DNA of 64,000 nucleotides from Tubulanus polymorphus (taxonomy: Eukaryota; Animalia; Nemertea): NCBI RefSeq assembly GCF_964204645.1, contig NC_134028.1, positions 13,771,653 to 13,835,652 of the forward strand, in the 5' to 3' direction. Position 1 is the stretch's first letter. Each line of letters opens with the position of its first letter. Under the pieces are notes generated by a model. The model was not told where the DNA came from. It saw only the letters and a list, made by a program, of their open reading frames with translations, and searched no databases. The translations under genes and the position numbers were made by a program. This document shows, piece by piece, positions 14,540-50,960 of the stretch.

Positions 14540-15142
14540 ATGTCAAAGAAATCTAATAAGAATAGTATTGATATTGAAAAGACATTAGATGATTTGGGTA
14601 TAAGTGATAATAAAGATATAGTTGCAACTAATTGTGCTCAAGTTGATAACAATATAGATTATGAATACTATTTATATTGTAAGCATCATCTTGAATTATT
14701 AATTGCTGGCGGGAAATCTAAGGACTTCTTAGGAAAAATAATAACTTTTCAAGAACTAGACTCTATGAAACCCGATAAAGTAATAAAATATTTTAAGATT
14801 TATGAAGAGGCAAGATTAGCTAGAATAAACGACTCTATAAGTGATGGTATTGTCAAATGTTATTCTAAGTTATGTAACCAGTTAATACCAATTGATGATG
14901 AAAATAAATTATATAATGATTTGAAAAATGACTATTTAGTTATGACTGAATTACAAAAATGGGTTGGATATGCTTCATTTCAATTAGGATCGGTTATGAC
15001 ATTGATTTCTACTGGAGTTATAACATTTTCGAACATCAAGCCTATGGAATATAAATCAGGTAAGAACGAAACAGATGTACTACAACAAAACATCGAAACA
15101 GAAAATGAATCAGAACAAAAATTAACTAAAATAAATGAGTGA
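14540..15142 (+). CDS. Polinton hypothetical protein, 200 aa
   Basis: Open ORF, TAAATG start, overlaps the next gene. Confidence 0.8.
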   Translation: MSKKSNKNSIDIEKTLDDLGISDNKDIVATNCAQVDNNIDYEYYLYCKHHLELLIAGGKSKDFLGKIITFQELDSMKPDKVIKYFKIYEEARLARINDSISDGIVKCYSKLCNQLIPIDDENKLYNDLKNDYLVMTELQKWVGYASFQLGSVMTLISTGVITFSNIKPMEYKSGKNETDVLQQNIETENESEQKLTKINE

Positions 15143-15497
15143 TGGAGTTAAGAAAAAAGCTAGATCCGAGAAACAAATTAAATGGGCAAGAGAATTAGGT
15201 AAAAGATCATCAGAATTAAAAAAAGCTAAGAAAAAGAAATTAACTGATATAAATGAATCTGATATTGATTCAAATAATAATCCATCTAATTCTTCTAATA
15301 GTGGAAGAAATAATTACTTATATATTACAATTGGGTTAATCACAATTATTATATTATCCGGTGTAATATATAAATCAAAATTCAAATCTGACGATAAAGA
15401 TGATCGGAAACTTAGTTATCCGTGTACAGACAGTAAACCTATTATACCAGAAAATAAATCAAATGAAACTAAATCTAAAATATTATTAATGGATTAA
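15135..15497 (+). CDS. Polinton small basic protein with one transmembrane segment
   Basis: Lys/Arg-rich N-terminus; hydrophobic YLYITIGLITIIILSGVIY. Confidence 0.8.
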   Translation: MSDGVKKKARSEKQIKWARELGKRSSELKKAKKKKLTDINESDIDSNNNPSNSSNSGRNNYLYITIGLITIIILSGVIYKSKFKSDDKDDRKLSYPCTDSKPIIPENKSNETKSKILLMD

Positions 15498-15500
15498 AAT

Positions 15501-16588
15501 ATGATGAAAAAAGAACAATATTTAAGAGAGTTATATTATAATCCAGAAAGTGAAGTATCATATTCAAGTGTTTCGGAATTATGGGATAAAATTAAATCTG
15601 ATAAAGAAAAAATAAAATATAGTGAATTAAAATCATGGTTACAAAATCAACCCACATATCAAATTCATAAAAAGATGGATAAAAAATATTTAACAAGAAA
15701 AGTAATGGTTTCATATATTGATCAACAATGGCAAGCAGATTTAATTGACATGAAAAACTTAGAAGAATATAACAAAGGATATTTTTGGATACTAAATGTT
15801 ATAGATATATTCAGTAGATACGCATGGAGTATCCCGATTAAAAATAAAACTGGTATAGAAGTAACAAATGCTTTTAAATCTATATTTAAAGAAGCTATCC
15901 CAGATAAAATACAATTTGATGAAGGTAAAGAATTTTATAACAAACATTTTAAAAAGCTATTAACTGATAACGATGTAGAATATTTTTCAACACATTCAGA
16001 TAAAAAAGCATCTGTTATAGAAAGATTTAATAAAACATTGAAAACTAGAATGTGGAAATATTTCACCGCTAATGAAACATATAAATATATCGATGTGTTA
16101 GATGATTTAGTTAAAGGTTATAATAATTCTAAACATAGTTCTATAAATATGAAACCTATACAAGCTAGAAAAGAAGAAAATTCAGAAATAGTTTGGAATA
16201 ATTTATATGGAGCATTTGTTACACACGATTTTGGAGAACCTAAATTTAAAATAGGACAACATGTTAGAATTTCTAAATATCGAAAAACATTTTATAAAGG
16301 TTATACCCCTAATTTTAGAAAGAAATATTCAAGATTAAAAAGATAATATTAACTAAACCATTTGTTTATAAATTGTTTGATTTAAAAGATGAAGAAATAT
16401 TAGGTTATTTTTATGAACAAGAATTATCATTAGTACCAAATCCAGATGAAATAGAATACAAAATAGAAAAGGTATTGAAAACAAAAACTCTTAAAGGAAA
16501 AAAGTATTCTTTGGTGAAATATAAAGGATATGATGATAAATTTAATGAATGGATTTTATCTAGTAAAATTAAAAGAATAAATGAATAA
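15501..16588 (+). CDS. Retroviral-type (rve, DDE) integrase with C-terminal chromodomain, split by one frameshift near 16320
   Basis: QWQADLIDM, VIDIFSRY, QFDEGKEF, VIERFNKTLK, YNNSKHSSI; second frame EIFKIKK...FYEQEL...YKIEKVL...VKYKGYDDKFNEW. Confidence 0.93.
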
Positions 16589-17192
16589 AGATTTATTTAT
16601 ATTTGAACCACATAATATGTTAGTTACTGGAGTTACAAATTGTGGTAAAACACACTTCATATTAGATTTGTTAGAAACTATTTATAAAAATCATTTTGAT
16701 AATATAATATTATTCTGTCCTACATATGAAATGAATGAAACATATAATAGAGATATAGTTAAGATAAAAAAGTTTATTATATTAGACCCTAAAACAGTAA
16801 AAGAAAATTTAGATAATTGTATAAAAATTACATTAGATATTTATAAAGGATCTAATACATTATTTATTATCGATGATTGCGCAAATTTACATGATTCTAA
16901 AATTAGAGAAAGTGAGTTATGTTATTTAGCTTTCTCTGGTAGACATTTTGGGATAACAACTTGGGTTTTAAATCAGAAATATAATTCAATTGTGAAAGAT
17001 TTTAGAGAGAATATAAGATTTCTAGTTTTATTCTACAACAAAGATAGAAAATCTATGCAACAATCATTGGAAGAAAATCAAATTATACCTACTGAATTAC
17101 ATGATGAATATATGAATAAATTAAAAAATAATAAAGGTTCCAAATTACTTATGAGATTACAATTTCCATATGAATATAAATTTATAAAATAA
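16581..17192 (+). CDS. FtsK/A32-like genome packaging ATPase
   Basis: Walker A GVTNCGKT, Walker B LFIIDD, SGRH motif, VLNQ. Confidence 0.92.
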   Translation: MNKDLFIFEPHNMLVTGVTNCGKTHFILDLLETIYKNHFDNIILFCPTYEMNETYNRDIVKIKKFIILDPKTVKENLDNCIKITLDIYKGSNTLFIIDDCANLHDSKIRESELCYLAFSGRHFGITTWVLNQKYNSIVKDFRENIRFLVLFYNKDRKSMQQSLEENQIIPTELHDEYMNKLKNNKGSKLLMRLQFPYEYKFIK

Positions 17193-17214
17193 CTATTTGT
17201 ATACCTATGTATTA

Positions 17215-17283
17215 GATACCCTAATACCTGATACCCTAATACCTGATACCCTAATACCTGATACCCTAATACCTGATACCCTA
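17215..17283. repeat. 15-bp tandem repeat (GATACCCTAATACCT) x4.6 between the convergent gene blocks
   Basis: Directly visible in the sequence. Confidence 0.95.
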
Positions 17284-17351
17284 TTAGATACCTTAAATAA
17301 TTAAAAACCCCTTTTTTATTTACTATTATTTTATACAATTTTCAACCTTTA

Positions 17352-18323
17352 TTATTCGAGTTTTAGATAATCAATTTCTGAATCACTTTCACTATCAGTC
17401 GCTAACAATTTATTTAAATGCTTTTCCGAATCTTCTTCAATATCTTTATAATTTTTTTTCACCTTTTTCACCTTTTTCACCTTTTTTACCTTTTTCATGT
17501 TTTTTACTAAATCATCAATAGTTGTTTCATTTTTAAACTTATTCTTCCAATCAAATTTATTATTATTTTCTACTTTAAGTTTTATAGAATCTTTATTATC
17601 AATATGTTTAACTGTAACTATATCATCATGTGGGTGTATGGCATCATTTTCATTATCATCTTTATTAGTGTTTGCTCCTAATATTTCATTTACAGTGTTT
17701 GATCCTAATATTTCATTAGCATCGGTTAAATCTAATTCATCTTTATTAGGTGTTGCTAATAATAAATCTTCATATATTTTTTCACCATTTACTTTTTTAT
17801 TTGAAACAAACTTTGTAACATATCTAAATGGGTGTTCTATAAATTCTCTTAAACCAACACGTTCTATAACATTAGTAATATGTGAATTTGTATTCATATG
17901 TTTATTCCAATTTGATGGAGCGTTTGAAAATTCACCATTACAATAATCACAATAATTTCTATTTTCACTAACATTTAATATTATTGCATTATTATATGTA
18001 GAAGGTATTATATTATTTGATGTAGAGGGTATTACAGATGTAGAAGGTATTGTGTTATTAGATGTAGAAGGTATCACATTATTAGATGTAGAAGGTATCA
18101 CGTTATTAGATGTAGAAGGTATTACATTATTATCAATTACATTACTTAAATTATCAACAACACCACTTTTATTATTATCGATTTCTATCAGTTTAGTTTT
18201 ATAATTTTTAAAAATAGGATCAAATATCAAAGCTATATTACAAGGTATTACATAATATAAACCATCATTATTTTCATGTGTATCGATGTATGGAATATGT
18301 TTATATACTTTACCTCCTTCCAT
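17352..18323 (-). CDS. Polinton protein with VIPSTSNN repeats, C2H2 zinc finger and KKV repeats
   Basis: CDYC...HMNTNSH; 24-bp and 9-bp coding tandem repeats; TAAATG start. Confidence 0.8.
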   Translation of the reverse strand: MEGGKVYKHIPYIDTHENNDGLYYVIPCNIALIFDPIFKNYKTKLIEIDNNKSGVVDNLSNVIDNNVIPSTSNNVIPSTSNNVIPSTSNNTIPSTSVIPSTSNNIIPSTYNNAIILNVSENRNYCDYCNGEFSNAPSNWNKHMNTNSHITNVIERVGLREFIEHPFRYVTKFVSNKKVNGEKIYEDLLLATPNKDELDLTDANEILGSNTVNEILGANTNKDDNENDAIHPHDDIVTVKHIDNKDSIKLKVENNNKFDWKNKFKNETTIDDLVKNMKKVKKVKKVKKVKKNYKDIEEDSEKHLNKLLATDSESDSEIDYLKLE

Positions 18324-18356
18324 TTATTATACATATTTTTATTAAAGTTAAAATTT

Positions 18357-19599
18357 TAATACATAACACTATCTAATTGTGAATTTATAATATTTAATTG
18401 CGCGTCAGATATAATATAAATGTGCATTTTAAAATTTTTCCTTTTTTCTTTGTCATGAATAATTGTATTCCATCTTTAGTGTTTTGTAATTTTTTTCCAG
18501 AACCATGTAATAAGTTATCTTCAGTTGTTCTAAAATCTAACCATAATGCATATTTATTACCGGTATAATAATCAATTTGATTAATGTTACAATTTTCAAA
18601 TGATTTTATTTTTTCATTCATAAAATGTTTTCTAATTTCTGGCCATTGATCAATCATTCTCATTCCTTGACAAAATATTTTATTCGCTATACCTTCGATA
18701 GTTATTTCTACTTTTGTTATTTCAGGATTATAATAATTATCAACATTTATTGCACCATTAGTATACGTTCCAATGGTAAAAAATATTAATATACCTTTAA
18801 TAGATCTTCTTGGGAAGTTAATATTCTCATTTATTATTTCATCATTTGCATTAATAGTTACAGTTTTAAATTTATCAATATAATCATATAATAATGAAAA
18901 TCCTTGATTGTATTTAGTTTGAATTATACTTGAAATATTTTCATCAGTTACTGTATCATATTCTAAACATATATTCGATAATTTATAACTCATATCTTTA
19001 ACAACGCTAGATAATACAATTTCATTTACAGGAGCAAATGTTATCTCAAATATAATATCTTCTTGAATTACGTATTTATATAAAGGGGCATTATTATTTA
19101 TCAATTCAAAGTCTAATGGAATTTTATATTTGCTTCCATATATACTTTTTATCAATTTATCTACATCATTAGTTAATATTGCGCTATTAGCTTCTGATCT
19201 TAATTTATTTTGGTTTTCTGATTGAATTCCTTGAAATATCATATTATTTCTATTTTCTTTAGTTAACCATAAATCTTTATAATGCATAAATAAATTATAA
19301 TCATCTAATGAGAAAACTGTTTCCGGACCAATCTTTATTGTTAACTTTTTAATCAAATATCTCCCAACATTATCAACAACATAATTATTATTATTACCGA
19401 TTACTTTTATATCAGCTGATAAATAAATACTGTTTGGAACATAAAAAGTATTTTGTGTTAATCTAGGAATTCTAACGTATAAAGTTTCACCGGGATTAAT
19501 ATTTGAAGGGTTATGAGTAATTATATGATGTGATCTTTCTGCTTTAATAGCATTAGATATTCTAGAAATCTTAGAAGGAATTATATAACTCCCACTCAT
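18357..19599 (-). CDS. Major capsid protein (double jelly-roll type), frameshift near the C-terminus (~18440)
   Basis: About 410 aa; NPSNINPGETLYVRIP, LVDNVGR-like, YKIPLDF, YKLSNICLEYD, KYALWLDFR; alternative frame ends MHIYIISDAQLNI..VMY*. Confidence 0.85.
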
Positions 19600-19628
19600 T
19601 TATTTAACAAAAAAATTAATTATTTATT

Positions 19629-20946
19629 TTTGATATCATGGTTTACTTGATATTTTTTGATATCATATTTACTAAACCAAAAATAATAGCACTTACAACT
19701 GTAATTAAAAATAAAATAATATGTTCAGCAGCAAAGTTAATAATGTTTCCTGCAGATTTCAATATAAAACCAACAATTGAAGCAATAACTCCTGGTAAAG
19801 CTGCAGCAGATTTCTTTGATAGTTCCCATAAATATTTTGCTAATTTCTTTAAACCATCTTTAACTTTATCTTGTATAGAATTATTGTTTGGAGGTTTATC
19901 TGGTTTATTGGGAGTAGGAGTAGATTTTAAAGCATTTGATATTGCTAAACCAATTGTTGTAAATAACATAGTTACAGATGTTAGAATTGAAAGAATTGTT
20001 ATTCCTTCTAATTTAAATAACAATTTTATTCTATCTTTTAATGATATTTCAGAATCTGAATCTTTCCAGTTTCAGAACCAGATGTATCTGATATACTATT
20101 CATCAGTTCTTCTGAATCTCTTAATCTATCAATTTGTTTTTCTAATTGTAATTTACTTGAATAATTATCAATTTGTTGAGTGTCTCTTCTCGATGTTTCG
20201 GGTGTTGAAGATCTCAATCTATCTAATCGATTTCTATTCTCTTCCATTTCTGGATCAAAATCAGTAGGATTTGGATTTTTAAATGGTGAATATTTGTTTA
20301 TATCAATTTTAGGAATTGGTTCTTCTTCATTTACTCTAACGAGTGCATTCCATATAATTCTGAGAAATTCTCTACCACCTTTTGAATTTTCAATTGTAGA
20401 TCTTGCTCGCATTTCAGGTTCAAAAATATTTTCTTGACCCATTTTAGATAATTGAATTGTTACAATATTCCTATTTAAATCAAGATTATAATACCATGCA
20501 TCATTTTTAAATTCTAAATTATTTGTGAAATATGGGTCATCTTTAAAAATTTGTTCTACAACACCTTCAGTATCAATTTCATCTGTTACACCTGATGGTA
20601 ATAATTCGTTAACAATTGTATCTGTTACTCTAGATTTCATTTTAAATAATTCCATAGGTTTATCAGGATATTTTTCTTGTTGTTTTTCTAATAGTTCCAT
20701 AAATTCTTTTCTTTCTCTTCTAGTTGAAATTCTACCCCTTTCAGGAGCTTCTAAATATTTATTTAATTTTTCACGTAATTCGGGATCATCATCATCATCA
20801 TCATCTTCACCTAAATTAGTATAATATGCTGATTCATCATTATTATCAATATTAGCACCTGCATCATTATAATCATCATCAATATATCCTTCATTATCAT
20901 TTCCCATGTCATCCAATGGAATATCTTCTCCACCTTCTACATCCAT
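19629..20946 (-). CDS. Polinton protein with acidic N-terminus and C-terminal hydrophobic helices; probably one gene split by a frameshift near 20060 (ORFs 20038-20946 and 19643-20023)
   Basis: Adjacent ORFs; the second lacks an ATG and continues DSEISLKDRIKLLFKLEGITILSIL; homolog at 52300-54385. Confidence 0.7.
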
Positions 20947-20962
20947 TTACATAATAAAAAAA

Positions 20963-22264
20963 TTAAAATTTAAAATATAATATTCCTCCGATTACAATTC
21001 CTATACAAGTTATAGCTAATTTAGTATTTTCATGGGATTTATTATCATCATTTAGTTTAATTATATCATGTTGAATTTTATCACTTTTAATATTTTCTGA
21101 TGTATTGTAATCTTTTATTTTAGAATCATTATTTAATTTAATATTCTTAGTTTTAGTTTCAGTTGATTGAATATGTTTTTTATTTTTTTCACCTTCCATT
21201 AATTTTGGGGCAGCAATAATCTTTTTATTTATATCATTTAATCCAAATGAATTATTTATTGTTGCAGTTTTAATTAGATTATTATAACCAATTATGTTTC
21301 CCATCTTCAATACTAAATCATTAGAAATAATTAATAGATTAGGGCCTATACAATAATTAAGTCTTACATGAGATTTATCTAAATAATTTTGATATCTTAT
21401 AATGTTTTCTGGAATCGATCTATTTTTATCATTATGAATTGAATCTTCAAATAATCCTTTGAATTGTTTTTGCGCATCGAATGAAGTGTTATCATTTCCA
21501 ATTATTGGGGATCTTGTTTCAACTTGCGCACCTAAAATACATATCAAATAAATTCTAATAGATTGATTTATTCTTTGTATACCTGATTTTGTAAAACCTT
21601 CACCATTTTCTAAAATGAAATTAACCCAACCATTATTATCATCAATTTTATAATTATGATAAGCTCCAATTCTATGCATATAATCAATTCTTTTTATTTC
21701 ATACTCTTCACCAACACCTTGCAATTTACCATGCGCTCTAAAATCGGAATTAATATTTATATTAAATTCATTACATATTTTATAAAACTTGGATATATTA
21801 ATATTATTATCCAATTCTTTAAAATATTTAGACCCGGGTAAAGGACATTCTAATTCATTTAATATTATTCTGATTTGAAAATATGTGTGAAATCTAAATA
21901 TTGTGTGAATTAATTTTAAATCAGAATACTTCAAATTTTTATCTAAGTTATTTAAATGATCATTCCAACTAATTCCACATCCTGTTGTTGCACAATAAAC
22001 AGCAAAATTTAATTGGTTCTGCCAATATTTCATATTAGATTTTACTTTATATATATGATATTCATCTCGAGTAAAAGTAACTTCATATGTATTAAATATA
22101 TTTTCCATTTTAGAAATAAAAAACTGTGATTCATTAACATAAATTTCTAAATTAGTTAATGAATTTAAAACTATATTTTTATATGTAATATTTTTCTTAA
22201 AATCTATTGCTGGAATATTATATTTAATTGATTTATTATATTGGAAAGCTTTTGGAAACCCCAT
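20963..22264 (-). CDS. Polinton protein, 433 aa, with C-terminal TM anchor
   Basis: WQNQLNFAVYCATTGCG motif; homologs at 54400-55740 and from 63937. Confidence 0.85.
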   Translation of the reverse strand: MGFPKAFQYNKSIKYNIPAIDFKKNITYKNIVLNSLTNLEIYVNESQFFISKMENIFNTYEVTFTRDEYHIYKVKSNMKYWQNQLNFAVYCATTGCGISWNDHLNNLDKNLKYSDLKLIHTIFRFHTYFQIRIILNELECPLPGSKYFKELDNNINISKFYKICNEFNININSDFRAHGKLQGVGEEYEIKRIDYMHRIGAYHNYKIDDNNGWVNFILENGEGFTKSGIQRINQSIRIYLICILGAQVETRSPIIGNDNTSFDAQKQFKGLFEDSIHNDKNRSIPENIIRYQNYLDKSHVRLNYCIGPNLLIISNDLVLKMGNIIGYNNLIKTATINNSFGLNDINKKIIAAPKLMEGEKNKKHIQSTETKTKNIKLNNDSKIKDYNTSENIKSDKIQHDIIKLNDDNKSHENTKLAITCIGIVIGGILYFKF

Positions 22265-22280
22265 TTATATAACTAAAAAA

Positions 22281-22715
22281 TTAATAATTTATTAATTCTT
22301 TTAATAATTTATCTTGTTCTTCAACTGTTATATGGCCATTTAAACTTATTATATAATCTAGTGTGTTCTTTAATTTATTTATTTCTTTTATATTAGTTTT
22401 AATTTTTTCTTTATTACTTTTTATATTTAATTTTGAACTTATACCAGTTAAAACACTTGAACTTAATCCTAATACACCAATTGATATAGCTAAAGGTGTT
22501 AATGGACTGAATATTGCTAAAAATGTTATTACAGAACTAATTGTAGCCGAACCACTAATAATAAGATAATATATAATTTTACTTTTTAAATATTTTTTCT
22601 TTTTTATCTTTAAGTCACTTTCAAATTCTAATATTTGTTTTTCTAAATATGTTTTTAATTTAGTTTTATTTATATCATGAGGAATAATATCAATACTATC
22701 AACTTTATCTTCCAT
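22281..22715 (-). CDS. Polinton two-TM protein flanked by coiled coils
   Basis: Two hydrophobic segments; homolog at 63489-63917. Confidence 0.8.
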   Translation of the reverse strand: MEDKVDSIDIIPHDINKTKLKTYLEKQILEFESDLKIKKKKYLKSKIIYYLIISGSATISSVITFLAIFSPLTPLAISIGVLGLSSSVLTGISSKLNIKSNKEKIKTNIKEINKLKNTLDYIISLNGHITVEEQDKLLKELINY

Positions 22716-22734
22716 TTATTTAGAATAAAAATTA

Positions 22735-23157
22735 CTAATTAGTAAATTTATAAGCAACAAATATAACAATAACTGTTCCACCTAAAATCCAAATTATTTC
22801 ATATTTCTGTTGTTCTTTACTTGGGGTATAATAATCTGATAATTTAGGTTTGTATAGATGTAATTTTTCTTTATTGGTTACCGCGTTATATAAACTCATT
22901 GCATCATCAACTGATTGAAAATCTCTATGTGAAATCTTCTGATCATATAATTCTTTATTGATGTAATCCATATAGTTTTGTTTCTTTTCTCTATATTCTT
23001 CTGCAGCTTTATTGTATTTCTCTAACGCTAAGTTATGTCTTCTTTGTTCTCCTAATGAACTATTTTTATCAATATGTTTAAATAAATAACCACCACCAGT
23101 AAATGCTAAAGCGTTAACAATTGCTGATCCTATAATAGTTATAATTGCAGAAGCCAT
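22735..23157 (-). CDS. Polinton protein, 140 aa, with hydrophobic N- and C-termini
   Basis: NALAFTGGGYLF, EQRRHNLALE; homolog at 63040. Confidence 0.85.
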   Translation of the reverse strand: MASAIITIIGSAIVNALAFTGGGYLFKHIDKNSSLGEQRRHNLALEKYNKAAEEYREKKQNYMDYINKELYDQKISHRDFQSVDDAMSLYNAVTNKEKLHLYKPKLSDYYTPSKEQQKYEIIWILGGTVIVIFVAYKFTN

Positions 23158-23181
23158 TTATTTAACAAAAAAATTATGCAT

Positions 23182-23403
23182 TTATATGGGAGGAATATAT
23201 TTTTGTTTTTCCAAATAATCAATTGTTAAATTAGATAAAGTAACTGCTAATGTTAATTTTAGAATATCATTTATATCAAATCTATCAACATTAACACTTC
23301 CCATTTTGAATACTTTTTTTAATACCATTGAATAACCAACAGTTCCAACTGATAGTAATGCGCCATTATATAATCCAGTTATTATCCACTTATTATCACT
23401 CAT
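23182..23403 (-). CDS. Polinton small membrane protein, 73 aa
   Basis: TAAATG start; homologs at 43613-43813 and near 62800. Confidence 0.8.
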   Translation of the reverse strand: MSDNKWIITGLYNGALLSVGTVGYSMVLKKVFKMGSVNVDRFDINDILKLTLAVTLSNLTIDYLEKQKYIPPI

Positions 23404-23760
23404 TTATTTATCAAAAAAATTACTATCATCAAAATATTTAGTTAACTTAGTGATGATTATTTCAACATTTATTTCATTACTAGTTTCATTTGTATATATT
23501 TCAATTATTATTTTTTTAATATCATCGATGATAAAATCTTCATCTAATTCATAAAATCTTAAAGATTCTCTAATTAAATTAGTAATCTTTTCTACATTTA
23601 AAGTTTCTTTATCTATTGTTGTTTCATACTCAAATGTTGTTTCATTAGAAAATGCAATATTTTTGATATGTGTAATTACATCATTCATGTTAAATTTCAT
23701 TTCTTTCTCACGTTTAAAATCAAATCCAAAACATATACTCGGTCAAACAGTTATATTCAT
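23404..23760 (-). CDS. Polinton acidic protein; probable true start at 23760 with an in-frame TGA at codon 6
   Basis: TAAATG at 23760 reads MNITV*PSICFGFDFKREKE directly into the 98-aa ORF. Confidence 0.65.
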
Positions 23761-23776
23761 TTATATATCAAAAAAA

Positions 23777-24532
23777 TTACTCTCTACATCTTATAACTAA
23801 TTCATATATCACAGGAAAGTTATTTAAATCAATTAAGTATCCATTATGATTTCTTATTTCTAATTTAAAATTATTAAATTTAGGAATGCAAGGTTTAAAA
23901 TCACATTCTGTTAAATTATAATTTATTTGCGTTCCAAATTGTTTAACATTTTTTAATGGTAAAATATTTAATATACTAGAATTACAAATTGTTTCTTTAG
24001 TTGCTTCGAAAGTTTTTGTAGGCTCGATTAAATTGCAATAAATATAAAAGTGTGTATAAGGTATTATATTTGAGCTGCCTTCTGCGTTTCCAGTAACTGT
24101 AAGTGGTTTAATTCCTAACATTTTAGCCAGTGGTTTGTTTACCATAAATTTATGTTGTTCATTAGATATTTTTATTCTTATTTTATTAGTACTATCAATT
24201 TTATTAAATTTAATTTCAAATACAGAAGTGCCCCCGATTTTCAACCGAGCTCTTCTATTAATTTCCTGTGCCAATGATTCTAAATTATATAATCCTGGTT
24301 TTAAAAATATATGAAACCATTTATCTTTATTTCTCATATAAATCATAAACCCTCTATGTTCAAAAGTTTTATCCGATACATTATAAAAAGAATTACATAA
24401 ACTTATATTAACTAATTTTAAATCAACACAATTTTTGAATTCTCTATCTAATTGTACTAATAAATTATGTGATTTATAATTTGTAAGTTTTCTAGAATCA
24501 ACATATATTCTGTATTCTTTTAATTCTACCAT
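23777..24532 (-). CDS. Probable minor capsid protein (penton, single jelly-roll)
   Basis: About 250 aa; IYVDSR start, NSFYNVS, PGLYN, FYIYCNLI, C-terminal IRNHNGYLIDLNNFPVIYELVI. Confidence 0.8.
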   Translation of the reverse strand: MVELKEYRIYVDSRKLTNYKSHNLLVQLDREFKNCVDLKLVNISLCNSFYNVSDKTFEHRGFMIYMRNKDKWFHIFLKPGLYNLESLAQEINRRARLKIGGTSVFEIKFNKIDSTNKIRIKISNEQHKFMVNKPLAKMLGIKPLTVTGNAEGSSNIIPYTHFYIYCNLIEPTKTFEATKETICNSSILNILPLKNVKQFGTQINYNLTECDFKPCIPKFNNFKLEIRNHNGYLIDLNNFPVIYELVIRCRE

Positions 24533-24549
24533 TTATTTTACATATTTTC

Positions 24550-24891
24550 TTATTCGAAATCTATTTCATGGTGCCCTTTTTCATTCTTACCTTTGTATAC
24601 GAAATAGAAATCTCCAGAACATAATTCTTCTAGATCTTCACTTGATAATCTATGAAATCTATCTGGTAAATAAGTTCTGAATTTATATTTATTTCCTTTT
24701 AATCCTTCATATTCTAAATGAATTACTAATTTATCTCCATATTTATTAGTAATTGTTTCAATGTTAGTAATTAAATATTTCTTGTGAATTGTTAATTCTG
24801 TTAACTTTTTAAATTTATAATCTACAGATTTGACGCTTGAAGTATCTTTAATTCTATCTAAGAATTCACTGTGTACTTGTTTACTCTCCAT
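24550..24891 (-). CDS. Polinton small protein, 113 aa, function unknown
   Basis: TAAATG start; homologs near 45160 and at 61393. Confidence 0.8.
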   Translation of the reverse strand: MESKQVHSEFLDRIKDTSSVKSVDYKFKKLTELTIHKKYLITNIETITNKYGDKLVIHLEYEGLKGNKYKFRTYLPDRFHRLSSEDLEELCSGDFYFVYKGKNEKGHHEIDFE

Positions 24892-24919
24892 TTATTATAC
24901 AAATTTTTATTGAAATTGA

Positions 24920-27900
24920 TTAACACGTTAGAATCCTTTTCATAATCTCATTTTCTTTTGTTTCTTCTCTTTTGAATTTTATATATTCATCTAAATTGCA
25001 ACCATAGGCGACTGTGTGGATTCCATCATCTAAAATATATCTTTTATCATCAAATGGGTTTAGACTTATCTTCTCTATCTCTTCAATATACATTTCATGA
25101 TCTTCAGATCTTAAACATTTCATTTTATGTTTTCTAACTTCTTCATTAAATATACAATTGATGTAATCTTTAAAATGAATATTCTTTTCTACTACATTTT
25201 TGGTTATTCCTTTTAACTTTTTAGCTTCATGTTCTTTAGTTTTATATGAATACATTTTAGATCTAATACCAATGAACTCTATCATTTCTTCACCACCTAA
25301 TTCATCCCTAAACTTCCAGGAACTTTTTTATTATCATTGCTAAACAATTCATGATTTTTGGGATAATTGCTGAAATCAAAATGGTGTTTTAATATTTTTA
25401 AGTCTTTTGTTATGTTATCACTTTTTATCTTTAATATGTAAGAATCTGTATCTAGATATAAGATTTCTATATGTTTTTCCCCAAAATGGGGTTGCAATAC
25501 ATTATAATAGAATTCATACATCAATAGCTTTGAAATTTCTAAAACTGCAGCTCCAACATAAATAGGTTTATTGAACTTCATAGAAGTTCTTTTTAATTTA
25601 ACTGCAGCTAAATTTTCATCGAATATTCTATTACCTATGAATTTCGGATACGATTGCAAATGTCTAATTCTTTTACCATTACTAACTAACTCAATATCAT
25701 TTCTATTTCTAATATTTTCACATGTTTTTCCATAGAACGCATTATTCATTAGTTTAAAGTAATCTTTTTCAAAATCAGTTTTAGCTTCAGTTCTCTGTGT
25801 AGTATTAAAATCTATATATTTTTCTAACCACTTAGATTGACTAAATGAAATATATCTATGTACTTTTTTTAGAACCATTCCTTGTTTTAGATAAAACTTT
25901 AACATTCTATAATGTACTACATAATTATATTTATCTTCTTGAGTTACCATTAACTTTTCTGTATGAATATGATTTTCGGGTTTAATTCTTTTTTGGTAAT
26001 TTGATAATTCTTCATGTTTAACAGTTTTATGTTCGGGACAATATGCTAGATTTCTAGATTTGAATTTAATACGTTCAGGATATTCCAAGTCTACAACGAA
26101 GAAGTAACCAGTATCTGAATCATCTGCAATATCTAGAATTCTTTTCTTCCAATCAAATTTATCAATTTGTAAAACTTCAGTTATTTCAAACATCCCATAA
26201 GGTTGTGGTTCCATCATTGCCCAACCATAAAGATTATTTGCATCTATGTATAATAATTTATATCCAGGATTATCATTTACATTGAAATATCTATCACCTA
26301 ATACACCTGAAACACCTCCTCTTATAGATTTTTCAAATAATAGTAATTGATCTATATTTGTTAACAAATCCATTTTTATATCTGTAAATTTTAATCCACA
26401 ATCCCATGTTAATCCTGGGCTAGAATAACAATGACAAGGATCAATGTTAAAATATTTTAGGTTTACATCTCTAAACCTTTCAAATATATCAGTTAATAAT
26501 AATACATCTGATTTTAAATATAAATCTACTAATTGCCCATGATTTTCTATTTTGAAATGATTCCAAATATTCAATGTTCTATTATAAACTTCATCTTTAA
26601 CATATTCATTTTTTAATTCGTCATAGAATTGTTCTTTTAATAATTCAGTTATGTTAAAATCATTATGATTTTTATAGAAAGAATATGGAATTGCTCCTTT
26701 ATATCTCATTAATTTAAAATCATCATAATTTGGGTAATATTCTTTTAATATCTTTAATTCAACATCAACTAATGATTTTGATAAGTTATCTAATGAACTA
26801 TTTAAAAATCTATATGAATCTATAAATCTTAGACAACCAAATTGAAATGATATATAATTCTCAGATGTTTTAGCTAACATTCTAAATTTATAAGTTGGTA
26901 TTTTATCTTTTGATCTATTTGAATTTAATATTTCTATTTCATTATTAATTTCTTCTATTTTATGACACAGTTGCTTAATGAATAAATGCGCGTCATACCC
27001 CGATAAATTGTGAAATATAATGGGGACAAAATTTACTTTTTTGGCTTGTAAATTGCAAGCCTCATGCGCTGCACCTCTAAATTTACCATTCAAATGATCA
27101 TGGTCTCTTACTTTTTTATCTTTATAATTAAATAGTTTTTCACAATAATAACATTTATCTGCAAACGCAAATTCTTCTTTATCTTCTTCTGTCATAATTA
27201 TTTCTTTATTTGTATTCAATAATTTACTAAATCTTATTTCATATTCAATTAATAAGTCACAAAAATGATTGATAACATTTTCATTTCTATAATTATAATA
27301 TTCACTTTCAATTAGTTCTGGATAATCAGATTTTATATATAACCCGAAAGCTGCAGCTGATTGATGAATCTTTTTAATTGTATTTGTTATTGGTGGTTCA
27401 TCTGAATAATCACTTTCATTAGAATTTAATTTCTTTCTTTTATAATATATATCTTTTCTATCTTTATCTGTTAATTCTTTATTTAATGATTCAAAATCTC
27501 CATATATTACAAATGGTACTTTATTTTTGTAATCATATTTTTTGAATTCTAATATTTTATCTTTTTCATTTGGTAAAACTAATTTACAATAATCATGATT
27601 ATCACATAGTTGTTTATGATTTAATAATGTACTTTCATTACTAAATTTATGTAAACATTTTCTACATAGATATATTTTATTATGGTGATCACTTTCTGTT
27701 CTAAAAAATAAATCGATTTGTTTAATCCACATGTAATGATTTTCATAATATAGTATATCTATAACATCATTTGAATCATAATCTTTTGATAGGTATAAAG
27801 GTTCTAATGTATAATGTTTTATGTTGTTACCTTTTGTATTTGGTAATTTAATTAAATCAAATACATTTATCTTTAAATTATTATCTCTTTCTATTTTGGG

Positions 27901-28911
27901 GATGTTTTTAATTATAACAGGATACTTATCTATCTTATAATTATTTTCAAATTGTTTATAATGAGTTAATCTAAAACTATGTGTAATATCTTCTGTTGGA
28001 TGTAAACAACTTATTATAGCCCATATAAAACATTTATTATCAAAATTTTGTATATTTATTACACCATTAGTTTTAAATGGTAGTTTAATATAACTTGTTC
28101 CATTTATACTATCATCTTTATAATATGATAAATTATTTTCATCAATTGGTTTTGATTTAGTTAACTTATTATATTTTGTGTTATAAACATGTAAAGTTAT
28201 AAATATTATCTCATCAAATATTAAACCAGATCCTTCAAAATATTTCTCTTCTATTTTAGTTTTTATTTCATTATAACATTTATTTAATTTATCATCTATA
28301 TGTTGTTTAGATATAATATGTTGTGAATGAGAATTTATATTATATATTGGTTTATCTTCAGATTTTATAAACTTTACTTTAGAAGATATACTTATTTTAG
28401 GATATTCAACATCTGTAATTATTTTTATTATTTCTTTCATATTTTCTAAATGTTTTTTATTTTCTTCTAATGTTTTTCCTTTATGAAATTTAAACTCGAT
28501 AGCTGCTGGACCAATATCACTTTTAAATGCTTCGGTTATCTCTATATCTTTTTTATTATCTAATGAATTAATATAATTTCTTACATGTTCCATGTATGGT
28601 CTTTTATTGTTTAATTTATTTTTTATTCTTTTAATTGTCTTCTGTTTCTTATCGTTATCATTATCAAAATAATCTTCACCTAAAATATCATTATTCTTAT
28701 TTCTAATATGACTTATAGATTTTAAATGTTCTTTATAATATCTTTTATCACTGAATGATTGATTACATGTATCACATTTGTATGTTTCTTTTTCATTCTT
28801 TAATTCTTCTAATTTAGTTTCTAATATATCATCTTTATATTCTAGTTTCAATTTATTCTCTAAATGTGTTCTAGTTTTATTGTGTCTTGCTTTTTTCATA
28901 ACCGCGTGCAT
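24920..28911 (-). CDS. polB: Protein-primed family B DNA polymerase (pPolB) with N-terminal zinc fingers, an OTU-like Cys/His region and an EndoVII-like insert; frameshift near 25310; N-terminus truncated
   Basis: YGDFES, FHNLSGYD, YLKSDV, DANNLYG, KLMNNAFYGK, YLDTDS; CYYC..VRDHDHLNGKFRGAAH..CN; continues KFRDELGGEEMIEFIGIRSKMYSY. Confidence 0.95.
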
Positions 28912-29114
28912 TTCAGTTGAATAATAGAATAATTATTATCATTTGAATATATTTGATTATTTGAATTTGTGTATTGTAATTAAATCAATTGGTCGCGGAG
29001 CGGAGCGGTGGCGAAGCGGAGCGACCAATTGATTTAATACAATATGCTTTTTATATTATTGATATCTTAGAATAAATATTTAGTTTTGATATAAAATGCA
29101 CGCGGTTATGAAAA
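28893..29114. repeat. About 220-bp palindromic element at the truncated 5' end of polB
   Basis: Outer arms TTTTCATAACCGCGTGCATTT/AAATGCACGCGGTTATGAAAA; inner arms 28979-28996 and 29021-29038 around a GC-rich loop. Confidence 0.9.
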
Positions 29115-29146
29115 TATATTATAGTTTTTAATTACTTTTAATATTT

Positions 29147-29206
29147 TGTTTTTTAATGGGCTCGACCGTTCGACCTTTGGTATGAAAGCCTATTACCCCT
29201 ATTACT
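29147..29206. repeat. Right arm of the AGTAAT hairpin family (H2), right edge of the Polinton
   Basis: CTCGACCGTTCGACCTTTGGTATGAAA...CCCTATTACT is the reverse complement of the H3 left arm. Confidence 0.85.
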
Positions 29207-38479: not shown

Positions 38480-38601
38480 AGTAATAGGGAATAAGTTGTT
38501 TCATACCAAAGGTCGAACGGTCGAAAAATAAATTCTCGCACACTCGAATTTATTTTTCGACCCTTCAACCTTTGATATGAAACAACTTATTCCGTATTAC
38601 T
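38480..38601. repeat. 122-bp near-perfect hairpin AGTAATAGGG...CCGTATTACT (H3)
   Basis: Arms of about 56 bp around the loop TCGCACACTC. Confidence 0.92.
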
Positions 38602-42450: not shown

Positions 42451-42538
42451 ATAAACTCTCGCACACTCGAATTTATTTTTCATTTTTTATGAACTCGACC
42501 TCTCACATTTGATCTGAACCCCCAAATTCCCTATTACT
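42451..42538. repeat. Hairpin family loop plus right arm (H4)
   Basis: ATAAACTC-TCGCACACTC-GAATTTATTTTT...TCGACC...CCCTATTACT. Confidence 0.85.
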
Positions 42539-43612: not shown

Positions 43613-46600
43613 TGTTTTTCTAAATAATCAATTGTTAAATTAGATAAAGTAACTGCTAATGTTAATTTTTAAATATCATTGATATCAAATCTATCAAAAT
43701 TAATACTTCCCATTTTTAAATACTTGTTTTAATACCTTTGTATAACCAACAGTTCCAACTGATAGTAATGCTCCATTATATAAACGAGTTATTATCCACT
43801 TCTGATCCGCCATTTATTTAGAAAAAATACTATCTTCAAAATATTTAGTTATCTTGTTTATAACATATTTTCCTATATTTCAATTATTATTTTTCTAATA
43901 TCATCAATAATAAAATCTTCATCTAATTCATAAAATCTTAAAGAATTTCTAATTAAATCAGTAATCTTATCTACATTATAAATTCCTTTATCTATTGTTG
44001 TTTCATATTCAAATGTTGTTTCATTGAAAAATGCAATATTTTCAATATGAGTTATTACATCATTAATGTTAAATTTCATTTCTTTCTCACGTTTAAAATC
44101 AAATCCAAAACATATACTCGGTCATACTGTTATATTCATATTTATAAAACAAAAAAATTACTCTTTACATCTTAAAACTAATTCAAAAATTACAGGAAAA
44201 TTGTTTAAATAATTTAAGTAACCATTTTGATATCTTACTTTTAACTTAAAATTATTCAATCGTGAAATACAAGGTTTAAAATCACACTCACAGCTAAATT
44301 ATAATTTATTTGAGTTCCAAATTGTTTAACATTTTTTAATGGTAAAATATTCAATAAACCAGAATTACAAATTGTATCTTTAGTTGCTTCGAGAGTTTTT
44401 GTTGGGACAATTAAATTGAAATATATATAAAAGTGTGTAAAAGGTATTATATTTGGTGTAGTATCAACATTTGAATAAACTTTATTTGGATTAACTCCTA
44501 GCATTTTAGCTCATGGTTTTCTTACTATAAATTTATGTTGTTCATTAGTTAACTTTATTCTTATTTTGTTAGAACTATCAATTTTAATAGATTTAATGTT
44601 AAACCCAATAGATTCACCCACTTTTAACCGAGCTCTTTTATTTATTTCTTGAGATAATGTTTCCAAATTATATAATCCTGGTCTTAGAAATAGATGATAC
44701 CATTTATTCGTATTTCTATCATGAATCATAAACAATCTATGATCAAAACTTTTAACCGATATATTATCAAAAGAATTACATAAACTTATATTTACTAATT
44801 TTAAATCAACACAATTTTTAAATTCTCTATCTAATTGTAATTGTTAATTATGTGATTTATAATTTATAAGTCATCTTGAATCAACAAATATTCTATATTC
44901 TTTTAATTTATCATGCATTTATTTTAATTTTATTCATAAACTATGTTCTGAATTTACATTTATTTCCTTTTAATCCTTCACATTCTAAGTGGATAACTAA
45001 TTTATCTCCATACCTATAAGTAATTGTTTCAATATTTGTAAATTAATATTTCTTATGTAATGTTAATTCTGTTAACTTTTTGAATTTATAATCTACTGAT
45101 TTGACATTTGTAGTATCTTTGATTCTATTTAAGAATTCACTGCGTTATTTGTTTACTCTCCATTTTAATAACAAACTTTTTATTGAAATTGAATTAAAGC
45201 CGATTAACATGTTAGAATCCTTTCATAATCTCATTTTCTTTTGTTTCTTCCCTTTTGAACTTTAAATATTCATCTAAATTGCAACCATACGCGACTGTAT
45301 GAATTCCATCGTCTAAAATATATCTTTTATCGTCAAATGGGTTAAGACTTATCTTCTCTATCTCTTCAATAAACATCTCGTGATCTTCAGATCTTAAACA
45401 TTTCATCTTATGTTTTCTAACTTCTTCATTGAATATACAATTGATGTAATCTTTGAAATGAATATTCTTTTCTACTACACTTTAGGTAATTCCTTTCAAT
45501 TTCTTTGATTCATGAGTTTTTGATTTTATATGAATACATTTAAGATCGAATTCCAATAAACTCTATCATTTCTTCGCCAACTTATTCATCTTTGAATTTA
45601 CCGGGCACCTTTTTATTATCATTGCTAAACAATTAATGAGCTTTTGGATAGTTACTGAAATCAAAATGATGTTTTAATGTTTTTAAATCATCTGCTATGT
45701 TATTAGTATTAATCTTTAATATGTAACTGTCAGAATCAAAATATAAGATTTCTATATGCTTTTCTCCAAAATGAGGTTGTAATACGTTATAGTAAAATTC
45801 ATACATTAATAATTTTGATATTTCTAAAACTGTTGCTCCAACATAAATTGGTTTATTAAATTTCATAGAAGTTCTCCTCATTTTAACTGCAGCTAAATTT
45901 TCATCAAATGTTCTGTTACCAATAAATTTAGGATATGTTTGTAAATGTCTTATTCCTTTACCATTACTAACTATCTCAATATCATTTCTATTTCTAATAT
46001 TTTCACTAGTCTTACCATAGAATGCATTATTCATTAGTTTGAAAAAATCTTTCTCAAAATCAGTTTTAGCTTTAGTTTTCTGTTTGGTGTTAAAATCTAT
46101 ATATTTTTCTAACCATTTAAATTGACTAAATGAAATATATCTATGTATTTTTTTAGAATCATTCCTTGATTCAAATAGAATTTCAAAATTATATAATGTA
46201 CTACATCATTATATTTATCTTCCTGAGTTACCATTAACTTTTAACGTATGAATGTGATTTTCAGGTTTAATTCATTTTTGATAATTTGATAATTCTTCAT
46301 GTGTTACAGTTTTATGTTCGGGACAGTATGCTAGATTTCTAGATTTAAATTCAATATGTTCTAAATCTACAACAAAGGAGTAACCGGTATCTGAATCATC
46401 TGCAATATCTAGAATTCTTTTCCTCCAATCAAATTTATCAACATTTTCGTGCTGTAAAATTTCAGTTATTTGAAATACTCCATAAGGTTGTGGTTCCATC
46501 ATTGCCCAACCATATATATTATTTGCATCTATATATAATAACTTATATCCAGGATTATCATTTACATTGAAATAACTATCACCTAATACACCTGAAACTC

Positions 46601-47710: not shown

Positions 47711-47806
47711 TAAAATGAAAAATAAATTCGAGCGTCGAAATTTCTTTTTTTTATGAGATCGACCTCTCGACCTTCGGCCAGAACCAACTATTGGTATACA
47801 ATTACT
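47710..47806. repeat. Hairpin family partial copy (H5)
   Basis: AAAAATAAATTC-GAGCGTC-GAAATTTCTTTT...TCGACCTCTCGACCTT...ATTACT. Confidence 0.7.
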
Positions 47807-48777
47807 ACTGCTGACGCGCGTCAAAATACCTCCATCCACAAAATGTCAAAAATATGCTAACATATACGGACTTTTTTTCTAGAAATAAAAAAAAAAACAG
47901 CGATGATTTTTTTTAAAATAAATACCGACTGACCCACTACGTACCCTGCCATTGGTATCGTCATACTTGCTAGTTCAGAATTGCTCCTGAATTGAATAGC
48001 CTACTTATATTCGTGACAACGCACAAATTATAAGCAAACATACAATTACATCAGAAACGCCGAAATTCCCGGAATTTTCCGTATATCCCACAGGTTACAG
48101 GGTCAACTCAAATAAATAGAAGCGAGGAAATTTAGGGAGTTTATTATAATGTGAGGGCCTGTAGGTCGAAAAGTACATTGAGATTAGTCGAACTAAAAAC
48201 GGCGACACTTGCAGGGAGGATTGAACTTTTATATATTTCAATTCCAAGCATGGAAATTGCCATATATAAAAATGTGCCATTACTTTGTGCTAAAAAGCAG
48301 GGTTTTGCGTGTTTTTCAAGAATAAGTCCCCTAAAAATAACTCGATCACTATGAAATTTTTGTGGGCTTGAGAACTCATTAAGCTGAACCATGACACTAA
48401 AAATTAACACTATTGGTTCAATAGCCAATATCTGTGCCTTGTTGACACACCGGTTCTCTATTCATTTTCAATGAAAACCGCTTCAGCAGACCGTTTGCAT
48501 TGGCAAACCTACGGTTCGCCAGTAATGAAGTAAACAAAACACAGCGGAGTTATATCAGATTATATACTGGACATAACTGACTATCGGTTGTTACAAATAG
48601 ATTGTCTGGTCCCTCCGAGGTGCTTCTAACTGTACGTACTCACACAAACTGGAATTAGGACCTCGCCTAAAGAAATTTGTAAGGTTATCTATCACACTAC
48701 CTTTTAAACACAATGATCATGAATTAATTATTATGCGTAGGCCCGAGTTGTATAGATCATTGATCTCTTGTTGATGT

Positions 48778-49560
48778 TTAATTCTTTTTTGTATTATAAA
48801 TATTTAAATCTAAAAATATAATTTCATTCAATTTAAAGCCAGAACCATCTAAATATCGTTCTTCAATATGACGTCTAAATTCATGAAATATTTTTTTTTC
48901 TAACTTCTCTTTTATCTGTGTTTTTGAAATTATTTCTCCAGAATGTGTTTTAATGATATATTCCATTTTTTCTTCTGATTTTATAAAACTTACTTTTCCA
49001 GAAATACAAATTTTTGGATATTCAGCATCTGTTACAAAATCCATAATTTTTTTCCATTATTTCAGTATATCTACTATAGTTTTGCCTTAGATAAATCTAA
49101 ATATGATAGCTGCAGGTACAATTTTACTACGTAATGTTTCTAAAATTTCGATGGTATCTTCGAATTCTAGTGAATCATGTAATTTCTAACATTTTCCATA
49201 TAAGGGTTATTCGAAATAGATTTAGTTTTTAGTTTCTGGGTTTTTATAGATTTTTTTACTTGAAATTTATCATCAAAATATTCTGTTCCTAATATATTTT
49301 TACATAAATTTTGTTGGTGTAGTTTTGTGATTCAAGATGTCTATAATAATTCGTTATACTTATAAATTCATTACAAACATTACATTAAATTTCATCTTTT
49401 TCCACATTTCTTATTGTTCTTTTCTCTCATTTGAATTTTTTGGAGTTTCAAAGTCTATAACATTTTTTTAATGATTTGCCGTTATTCGGTGCAGTGAGTT
49501 TTATTACCATCATTTTTTCTGTTTGAAACTCACTCTCTCCAATTTAAAAGGAAAAAAATT
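48778..49560 (-). pseudogene. Decayed polB N-terminal fragment of a divergent Polinton
   Basis: EYPKICISGKVSFIKSE...IEERYLDGSG matches the N-terminal region of Polinton 1 pPolB. Confidence 0.85.
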
Positions 49561-49620
49561 AAAAGTGGTGGCGACTCGCCCTTTCGCCCTCTGGTATGAA
49601 ACCCTGATTTTCTCATTACT
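49560..49620. repeat. Hairpin family right arm (H6)
   Basis: CTCGCCCTTTCGCCCTCTGGTATGAAA...CATTACT. Confidence 0.65.
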
Positions 49621-49635
49621 TATATTGAATCTAAA

Positions 49636-49893
49636 CAATCTAAATGGTTAAACAATCTAAACAATCTAACATTTTTTAAATCTAATCTAAATATTTAGAA
49701 ATCAATACAAAACAACGCACAGTAGCAATGACTGATTTTGAAAAAGATGTTTTCAAGTTAATGAATAATGCATTCTATGGTAACTCTTGGGAAAATAATA
49801 GAAATAGAAGTGATATAGAATAAGTTACTAATGGCGAAATAATTAATATAATATTCACTATTTTAATATAATATTAAAATAGTGTACCACGTT
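49636..49893 (+). pseudogene. Polinton polB fragment (motif B to start of motif C, with an internal deletion)
   Basis: QSKWL..NTKQRTVAMTDFEKDVFKLMNNAFYGNSWENNRNRSDIE*VTNG...NIKIVYH. Confidence 0.88.
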
Positions 49894-50960
49894 TCTGTAA
49901 CGATACACCATTATCATTAAAATACAATAATCGAATTCTAATTAGAAGAATTTGAGAAATTATTCCTTAACAAAATGAACTTTATATTTCGTATGGTGAA
50001 AAGGAATTAATACAAATAAATGGGTTAATGGAATTTTGGACAAGAAATGAATGGGAAAAAATTATAAAATATAATGAGGCATCAAACAAATTAAAGAATA
50101 TATAGAGTTAGAACTAAATTAGTATGTGTAGATGTTACAGAAGACCATAGTTTAATGAGAAAAAATGGTGATGAAGTAAAACCAACTGATATAAAGATTG
50201 GAGATGAATTATTACTTAAAAGGTTTTTTCCAAAAATGAATCACATGTCATTAAATAATTAATTATACTTATAATATACAACCTGAAACATTACTTGAAT
50301 AAGATCATTTTATTAAAGGATTTTTCACCGGAGATGGTTCAGCAGGTGTTTATAAATATGTTAGTCGCACTCAAAATTGTTGGTATGTGAAGAATATTTT
50401 ATTAAAGGATTTTTCACCGGAGATGGTTCAGCAGGTGTTTATAAATATGTTAGTCGCACTCAAAATTGTTGGTATGTGTGCAATCAAGATTTTGAAATTA
50501 TTTGAAAGAACAAAGAAATATTGTGAAGAAGTTAATTCAGATAAAATATCTAAAATCGTGGATGTTATAAAATCATCACAATGGTATAGAATACATGTAA
50601 ATAATCCTAAAGATTTTGCTATAAAATATAATGATGAATTCTATGTTCCTGCAATAGTTAAAAGTAATACTTCAACAAAAGAAAAGATATTTCCAGATAA
50701 TGTATTGAATGCAAAATATAATTTAAGAAAATGATTTTTTTAGGATTTCATGCTGCAGATGGTGCGACAAAATTGTGAGTTTCCCATCAATAAAATTTGC
50801 TCAAAAACGAAAAGTTGCTATATCAGGATTAAATATATTATGCAATAACTAGGTTTCAATATGAGTATTGGATTAATTAAATTAAAACCAAATTGTTTTA
50901 ATTTAAGACATGTAGAAAGAGAATTAACTAAGTAAAAGATTTATTTGAAATATATAAGAA
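49894..50960 (+). pseudogene. Decayed intein with LAGLIDADG homing endonuclease at the polB motif C site; C-terminal splice blocks missing
   Basis: Block A SVT/DTPL; block B CVDVTEDHSL (50125-50154); FIKGFFTGDGS; FLGFHAADG (50737-50763); LGFNMSIG; internal duplication with 89-bp period. Confidence 0.85.

Follow-up and report, generated by a model that had tools for sequence, protein, structure and literature searches.

The locus described here raises the question of how the broken peptides of an intein come to follow a fragment of a Polinton polymerase, and of whether the two belong together. An initial annotation had seen in them an intein of giant-virus type, with blocks A and B and two LAGLIDADG motifs, at the pol-c site (YxD/TDS, the slash marking the point of insertion here and below) of a protein-primed family-B polymerase (pPolB). 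We examined this reading in the window, that is, the whole 64-kb stretch of DNA that was analysed, and in relatives of the intein and of its host polymerase.

A decayed intein in the window

All of the peptides quoted in the initial annotation lie where it had placed them. Motif B of the polymerase, KLMNNAFYG, starts at 49755 on the forward strand, and NIKIVYHV/SVT follows with its Ser at 49894. Downstream of SVT come DTPLSLK, EFWTRNEWEKI, MRHQTN with a stop and then RIYRVRTKLVCVDVTEDHSL, VKPTDIKIGDELL, two copies of FIKGFFTGDGSAG, FLGFHAADG (50737) and LGFNMSI. These peptides are scattered across three frames of the forward strand between 49755 and 50935, and the intein remnant contains eight frame changes and five in-frame stops. 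Ser1, the TEDH of block B and both LAGLIDADG motifs can all be located in it (Table 1), as had been proposed, and whole copies in relatives agree with this layout. Two details of the junction differ from the earlier description: the intein does not follow motif B directly, as 139 nt lie between motif B and the site, compared with 102 codons (306 nt) in the near-intact Polinton of the window, so that about 167 nt have been deleted; and the residue before the intein is V, not D. This copy lacks blocks F and G as well as the C-extein; a profile of the intein family detects nothing in it beyond profile position 334 and finds no second intein piece elsewhere in the 64-kb window. On sequence grounds, the stretch at 49894-50935 (+) is a decayed LAGLIDADG intein whose 3' end has been lost. 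This copy is dead, and can neither splice nor serve as a donor.

Table 1 Features of the window that bear on the intein and its Polinton setting.
Feature	Position	Strand	Evidence or remark
Near-intact intein-free Polinton	14540..29206	.	Integrase, A32 ATPase, capsid-like ORF, pPolB, end motif
Integrase	15498-16346	+	Pfam rve 1.6e-9
A32 ATPase	16581-17192	+	Pfam Pox_A32 1e-11
Capsid-like ORF	18394-19599	-	Capsid_N 0.0028, below cut-off
pPolB of near-intact copy, two ORFs	24920-28932	-	58% to P0165 over 575 aa
Empty motif-C site YLD/TDS	25441..25459	-	Junction 25450/25449
Polinton end motif of near-intact copy	29142-29206		
Empty motif-C site YFD/SDS in decayed copy	45726..45744	-	Junction 45735/45734
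Polinton end motif (..ATTACT) of neighbouring decayed element	49575..49619	+	Abuts intein-bearing fragment on left
Polinton pPolB N-extein fragment with motif B	49621..49845	+	225 nt; broken by short local duplications
Residual N-extein NIKIVYHV just before site	49870..49893	+	NIEIIYGD in P0165, HIEILYLD in empty copy
Intein N-terminal splicing region, broken, block A (Ser1 at 49894) to block B	49894..50259	+	tblastn of P0165, 50% and 43% identity; profile E 8e-10, 8e-22
Block B VDVTEDH	50128-50148	+	Within intein splicing region
LAGLIDADG endonuclease region, ending before blocks F and G	50270..50935	+	Reading of frames, tblastn of P0165, family profile
83-nt exact tandem duplication over LAGLIDADG motif 1	50307..50478	+	Period 89 nt
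LAGLIDADG motif 1 FIKGFFTGDG	50309, repeat at 50398	+	
LAGLIDADG motif 2 FLGFHAADG	50737	+	

Read as one frame with X at the stops, the remnant has similarities far beyond chance: a search of 1.84 billion proteins gave 759 matches at E<=0.001, the best at 5.7e-28. In most of the parsed matches the alignment lies inside an insertion that starts YGD/SVTGDT and ends N/TDS, as it does in 80 viral loci; in a minority the insertion starts DQD/SVT and ends N/TDG, in a host protein that we take to be topoisomerase II. This second site accounts for 18 of the 335 parsed inteins, L005, L010, L020 and L037 among them. Because the matches lie within insertions ending in this way, the remnant is an intein with a homing endonuclease and not a hedgehog Hint domain. 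The hedgehog type is ruled out by the inserted LAGLIDADG domain and by the polymerase C-extein downstream of it in the relatives, and the best matches are PolB inteins, not free-standing endonucleases.

Other searches were less productive. Pfam and NCBIfam were nearly blind to the broken pieces (the sole LAGLIDADG match has E 0.2), a PDB sequence search with these pieces was uninformative, and the ORF at 50303-50731 found no match among longer proteins. The phage collection gave one weak, unannotated match only, and no match of the viral contigs to whole P0165 (the filled pPolB described below) or to its intein was confirmed. Prokaryote genomes yielded 28 loci (best E 9e-64 at 38% identity), none of them classed as Polinton-type. 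In Atlas, matches to the intein of P0286 reach at most 0.87 and are leads only, while an unexplained Polinton ORF found no match there; Rfam has 0 matches in the window.

Whole inteins split motif C of protein-primed polymerases

With residues 850-1211 of the window's own pPolB as the query, the best 120 relatives include a single insertion-bearing pPolB, P0165 (1693 aa), and the intein is therefore rare. P0165 reads NIEIIYGD/SVTSDTP...GFPLIISN/TDSLVLK, and its intein is the best-scoring match to the window remnant among the 335 parsed inteins, aligning along it from residue 4 to 319; tblastn of P0165 onto the remnant gives E 9e-33 and 2e-26. The P0165 intein, used as a query in turn, added P0286, P0299, P0300 and P0302 (best 120 of 1102 matches), and a scan of metagenomes added contig L096, whose intein copy has two breaks.

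The whole inteins of these five proteins are 337-354 aa long and are all inserted at motif C, in the form xxD/S...N/TDS. Each has Ser1, TEDH, two acidic LAGLIDADG motifs and VYD, and all five retain the block F Asp, the terminal Asn and the +1 Thr, in the region that the window copy has lost. The penultimate His is replaced by Ser in P0165 and by Lys in P0299, as it also is in the Mimivirus intein P0351. LAGLIDADG_3 scores above the Pfam cut-off in all five, and Intein_splicing in one, with E values of 4.5e-7 to 1.3e-5 in the other four. A predicted model of the P0165 intein (pTM 0.75) has whole intein-endonuclease structures as its top matches (7qsu, E 9e-16). As for the host elements, represented here by their pPolB, DNA_pol_B_2 is above the Pfam cut-off in three of five, and P0300 and P0302 are assigned by similarity. 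P0299 is a pPolB of a type very different from the other four, so that the intein has passed between deep lineages of the polymerase.

The insertion is thus in frame and splits a conserved motif, with empty alleles both in the same cluster (P0286) and in the window. That the host is a Polinton protein, as had been claimed, is borne out by these five protein-primed polymerase clusters, which supply the intact pPolB-intein copies ending in N/TDS that had been sought and which place the intein inside Polinton-type pPolBs rather than in a non-Polinton polymerase. The claimed pol-c site likewise agrees with an insertion at exactly that point in the five whole copies and with their grouping with pol-c inteins.

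Filled and empty alleles

A tree of the upstream polymerase region could be built for the 32 of 41 rows that were parsed, leaving out nine unparsed rows (eight with CDS) and the divergent P0299. On this 32-row tree the filled state is scattered, with four state changes, all forced by starred branches. The intein closest to that of the window is the one in P0165, yet the N-extein fragment of the window has 72% amino acid identity to the intein-free P0154 and 57% to P0165. By itself, the patchy tree does not tell gain from loss.

The P0286 cluster brings the two states side by side. It has 136 members, and its contigs, at 57 kb to 1.0 Mb, greatly exceed a Polinton in length; among the 15 members listed 7 are filled, 6 are empty and 2 end short of the site. 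Filled and empty members share 96-99.6% identity upstream of the site and differ in its flanks, at several of the 6 residues that precede it and, here and there, among the 40 that follow. Such mixed alleles with differing flanks fit co-conversion during homing. The filled copies are 97-99% identical to one another, a likeness that points to recent multiplication of copies able to splice, unless polymerase was provided in trans by empty ones. The sequence after the intein is TDS in all 7 filled members, and the site reads CDS or TDA in all 6 that are empty. Of the 120 best relatives of the window pPolB, 49 read TDS, 47 CDS, 15 TDA and 1 TDG, with 1 filled and 7 unparsed, and 13 of the 15 closest to the window pPolB read TDS. 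Many intein-free pPolBs related to the P0286 family (P0170-P0266, P0397-P0404) also have CDS or TDA. On one reading, CDS and TDA at empty sites may be escapes from the nuclease; on another, they may be a lineage trait unrelated to the intein.

These data bear on whether the intein still homes. A nuclease without selection is expected to decay, and both acidic LAGLIDADG motifs are kept in all five whole inteins; the intein has also reached the very different pPolB type of P0299, and the flank differences in the P0286 cluster centre on the site. Each of these points argues against an intein that splices but no longer homes and owes its spread to recombination between Polinton copies and to expansion of the carriers. 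We consider that reading unlikely but worth keeping in view: the flank differences could be recombination patches, the intein is 96-98.6% identical between copies of the P0286 cluster, slightly below the upstream extein at 98.7-100%, and Polinton genomes are described as mosaic in the accessible text of 10.64898/2026.10.13.758929.

Chromosomal setting of the window

The window is a pile of mobile elements. At 14.5-29.2 kb, a near-intact Polinton brings together pPolB, rve integrase, A32 ATPase and capsid, the last with a match below cut-off. Its pPolB carries an HNH-type domain, PF02945 (Endonuclease_7, 4.4e-6), and is divided into two overlapping ORFs that split near 25300, so that this empty allele may itself be inactive. 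The Polinton end motif is common to eight places in the window, and the near-intact copy showed no left end to match. Decayed copies occupy 43.6-47.7, 48.8-49.4, 52-56.4 and 61-64 kb. The N-extein fragment beside the intein is 78% identical in nucleotides to the near-intact copy at 25665-25821 and 70% identical in amino acids over 50 residues. Both of the empty sites reported in the window, YLD/TDS and YFD/SDS, are present, and they may be homing targets, as the initial annotation proposed. At the second of these, which reads SDS, the first 4 nt after the site equal the first 4 nt of the intein; this may reflect either the past loss of an intein or a simple substitution.

Two Polinton-related pieces stand out. 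The first, at 38480-42543, is about 4 kb long, bears the Polinton end motif at either end and has long inverted arms that are 95-99% complementary; it is a Polinton derivative, palindromic and poor in genes, with a single ORF of 153 aa. The second, the decayed copy at 48781-49402 (-), is a divergent pPolB N-terminal remnant with 42-50% amino acid identity to the near-intact copy; the contigs that match it have depths of the same order as those of the intein, and it may belong to the intein-bearing subfamily.

Apart from Polintons, the window contains a tandem array of a reverse-transcriptase element (PF00078) at 261-13036, with a period of 3341 nt, two identical ORFs and an inverted piece at 261-1796; by its motifs the element is presumably Penelope-like. 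A chromodomain (PF00385, 3.6e-15) at 34846-35046 (+) is exon-like, lies between intron-like borders, and ends a multi-exon-looking gene that starts near 32.9 kb and has duplicated exons. Given the element array, the exon-like chromodomain and the nested decayed Polintons, the context of the window is eukaryotic and chromosomal. An array of this kind, an intron-bounded chromodomain exon and many nested Polintons make up a style typical of animal genomes, and they argue against a protist or other non-animal host, in which case the intein would extend the known viral inteins and be silent on metazoans. We regard such a host as improbable and an animal, the host assumed in the initial annotation, as likely, although a precedent exists in the viral polymerase inteins on nuclear scaffolds of algae and a labyrinthulomycete, as given in the parts of PMC10710043 that were available.

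Origin of the intein

To place the intein, 285 inteins of 300-470 aa were reduced to 129 by removal of near-duplicates, and L096 and the window remnant (with X at its breaks) were added. A FastTree analysis of the resulting 131 rows and a careful IQ-TREE analysis of 47 of them, from which L089 was omitted for its long branch, agree; the root in each case is formed by three inteins of another host protein. In the 47-row tree, all seven Polinton rows form one clade (100/100), within which the window copy pairs with P0165 (97/90), its nearest relative at 56% identity over 278 columns. The sister of the Polinton clade (97/93) consists of pol-c inteins of RNA-primed PolBs that share a GxPLI ending, and Mimivirus P0351 lies farther out. 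For unnamed rows, 'giant virus' here means PF00136 together with similarity to the Mimivirus polymerase, not contig context.

With the Polinton clade nested in this way and the root on inteins of another host protein, the tree points to one transfer from a giant virus to a Polinton, and a single acquisition, from a family-B polymerase of a giant virus, is likely. The giant-virus origin proposed earlier therefore holds insofar as a giant-virus clade is the sister group; the closest inteins are those of the GxPLI clade and not that of Mimivirus itself. We had considered the GFPLI ending as Polinton-specific and dropped this idea, as 15 viral loci, 13 of them named GVMAG, have the matching DNA pattern and none of them matches a Polinton protein; these loci pointed instead to the sister clade. 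In the giant-virus contigs L012 (5575-7818), L014 and L015, a separate ORF of 747 aa, beginning about 67 residues ahead of the pol-c intein, makes up the C-terminal part of the polymerase.

It is highly unlikely that the intein is ancient in pPolBs and mostly lost, or that it passed from Polintons to giant viruses. Inteins of another host protein alone provide the root, and the Polinton clade has a long stem (0.52) that would allow an old age; yet the seven Polinton rows are nested within RNA-primed PolB inteins through three starred branches, and one family holds near-identical filled and empty alleles.

Further copies in the same organism

The stretch is present in three sequencing runs (X1, X2 and X3), from at most two samples of one study. 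Contigs with 80-95% likeness cover most of the intein, and their summed depths are far above those of the contigs identical to the window: in X2, one 428-nt intein contig has a depth of 323 against about 18, and in X1 the intein depth bins are 800-30,000 against about 39. Depth is not a copy number, and these values indicate only that many further copies of the intein exist. The ratio of intein depth to that of window-identical contigs is far higher in sample S1 (X1) than in S2 (X2 and X3), for which copy-number variation or free replicating elements are possible reasons; depth is a poor measure of either.

Contigs were then aligned to 45560-51000, a range that includes one empty allele. Position 45731 lies 4 nt past the empty site at 45735/45734, and these 4 nt are the same as the first 4 of the intein, so that a filled copy should leave the alignment at 45731. 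One X1 contig, at single-copy depth, joins 45731 to 49979 on opposite strands, with 45 letters on its shorter side, and contigs of X2 (depth 205) and X3 (depth 69) on the N-extein end at 45731, beyond which 38 and 35 letters, respectively, remain unplaced. No contig joining intein to C-extein was seen among the 15 of 23 joints listed. From the window alone, a chance junction would be possible, given the gap before the site and 150 best matches without a Polinton protein. As judged by these contigs and the intein tree together, the link between Polinton and intein is not a chance junction: a scrap of giant-virus polymerase lying beside a Polinton fragment by accident is barely conceivable and already largely refuted, since, even with a junction that is a deletion, with IKIVY also preceding the intein in L012, L014 and L015, and with 0 Polinton proteins among the 150 best matches at 50% clustering, the window intein is nearest to that of P0165 and inside the Polinton clade, and contigs of the same organism join Polinton N-extein to intein at the site.

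A model for splicing and spread

We hold with high confidence that a pol-c intein resides in Polinton pPolBs, that it likely came once from a giant virus, that it is predicted to splice and likely homes, and that the window contains a dead, truncated copy. The whole copies likely splice themselves out. In the predicted class 1 reaction, an acyl shift at Ser1, helped by the T-x-x-H of block B, would be followed by transfer to the +1 Thr of TDS and cyclisation of the final Asn, which would rebuild the YxDTDS without which the polymerase could not work. The intein also likely spreads by cutting empty copies. Its two-motif endonuclease would cut intein-free pPolB genes at the codons of motif C, and repair from a filled copy would convert the cut gene and carry over a few flanking codons. 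The first jump would have taken place while a Polinton and a giant virus were replicating side by side in one cell; with the integration of Polintons the intein would then have entered host chromosomes, in which copies like that of the window decay.

A bolder extension is that the intein has entered several Polinton lineages and homes among their many integrated copies in animal germlines, and so acts as a natural gene drive that selects for escape from TDS to CDS or TDA; this would make it the first true intein family of metazoan chromosomes. We put this forward tentatively, as plausible but short of probable.

Relation to known inteins and significance

The closest described counterpart is the Mimivirus PolB intein P0351, which the available text of PMC549080 places at the same YGD/TDS site (position III, pol-c allele). 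Its blocks, SVTGDTP, DVTEDHSL, GFFMGDG, GYYAADG, VYD and N/T, are as in the Polinton inteins, and its 351 aa compare with 337-354 aa. The hosts differ: the Mimivirus polymerase is an RNA-primed, Pol-delta-like PolB (PF00136), whereas that of Polintons is protein-primed (PF03175) and belongs to an integrating element. The Polinton inteins also end in GFPLI and group with a giant-virus clade other than that of Mimivirus. The archaeal LAGLIDADG inteins TliVMA (7qsu) and PI-PfuI (1dq3), as well as PI-SceI (1vde), resemble the P0165 intein in modelled fold (TM 0.63 to 7qsu) and differ from it in their host proteins and in sequence (12-18% identity).

Inteins in viral-like DNA polymerases have been described on nuclear scaffolds of Klebsormidium, Tetrabaena and a labyrinthulomycete in the portions of PMC10710043 that could be consulted. 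These are alike in that integration brought a viral polymerase intein to eukaryotic chromosomes, and unlike in that, as presented there, they are endogenous giant-virus genes in algae and protists; the words polinton, maverick, metazoa and animal occur 0 times in the main text, and six such terms are absent from two supplements. HNH and VSR nuclease insertions occur in Polinton pPolBs according to the available text of PMC10748475, and one sentence in that of PMC11071308 guesses that they arose from intein invasions. They too are nuclease domains inside Polinton polymerases, as the HNH-type PF02945 of the window pPolB illustrates, but in these accounts they lie elsewhere in the protein and come without a described splicing domain, whereas the Polinton intein has full Hint blocks and a LAGLIDADG nuclease and splits a catalytic motif.

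In the literature searched, we found no description of an intein in a pPolB. The nearest statements are those of PMC11071308 and PMC10710043; the search also took in the accessible text of PMC12220804, PMC8502044, PMC7765530, PMC3671162, PMC13768754, 10.1101/299784 and PMC10120064, with subscription papers, preprint supplements, InBase, Repbase and Dfam beyond its scope. A 2018 survey put the number of inteins in Metazoa at zero and described metazoan genomes as lacking them (PMC5784728, in its available text). The view in the initial annotation that inteins are established neither in animal genomes nor in Polinton pPolBs fits both that survey and the texts searched. The intein is thus of a known kind, in a host class for which no earlier description was found, and is probably the first in the chromosomes of an animal.

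The Polinton intein family would then be an exception to the absence of inteins from metazoans, carried in by an integrating element. In it, a pol-c allele has jumped between two polymerase classes that share little besides YxDTDS. A common, nested intein is direct sequence evidence that the same cells have hosted the replication of both Polintons and giant viruses, a point of relevance to the question whether Polintons are parasites of the virophage kind. Where filled and empty alleles occur side by side in one family, the eukaryotic nucleus becomes a place in which homing, co-conversion and resistance can be put to the test.
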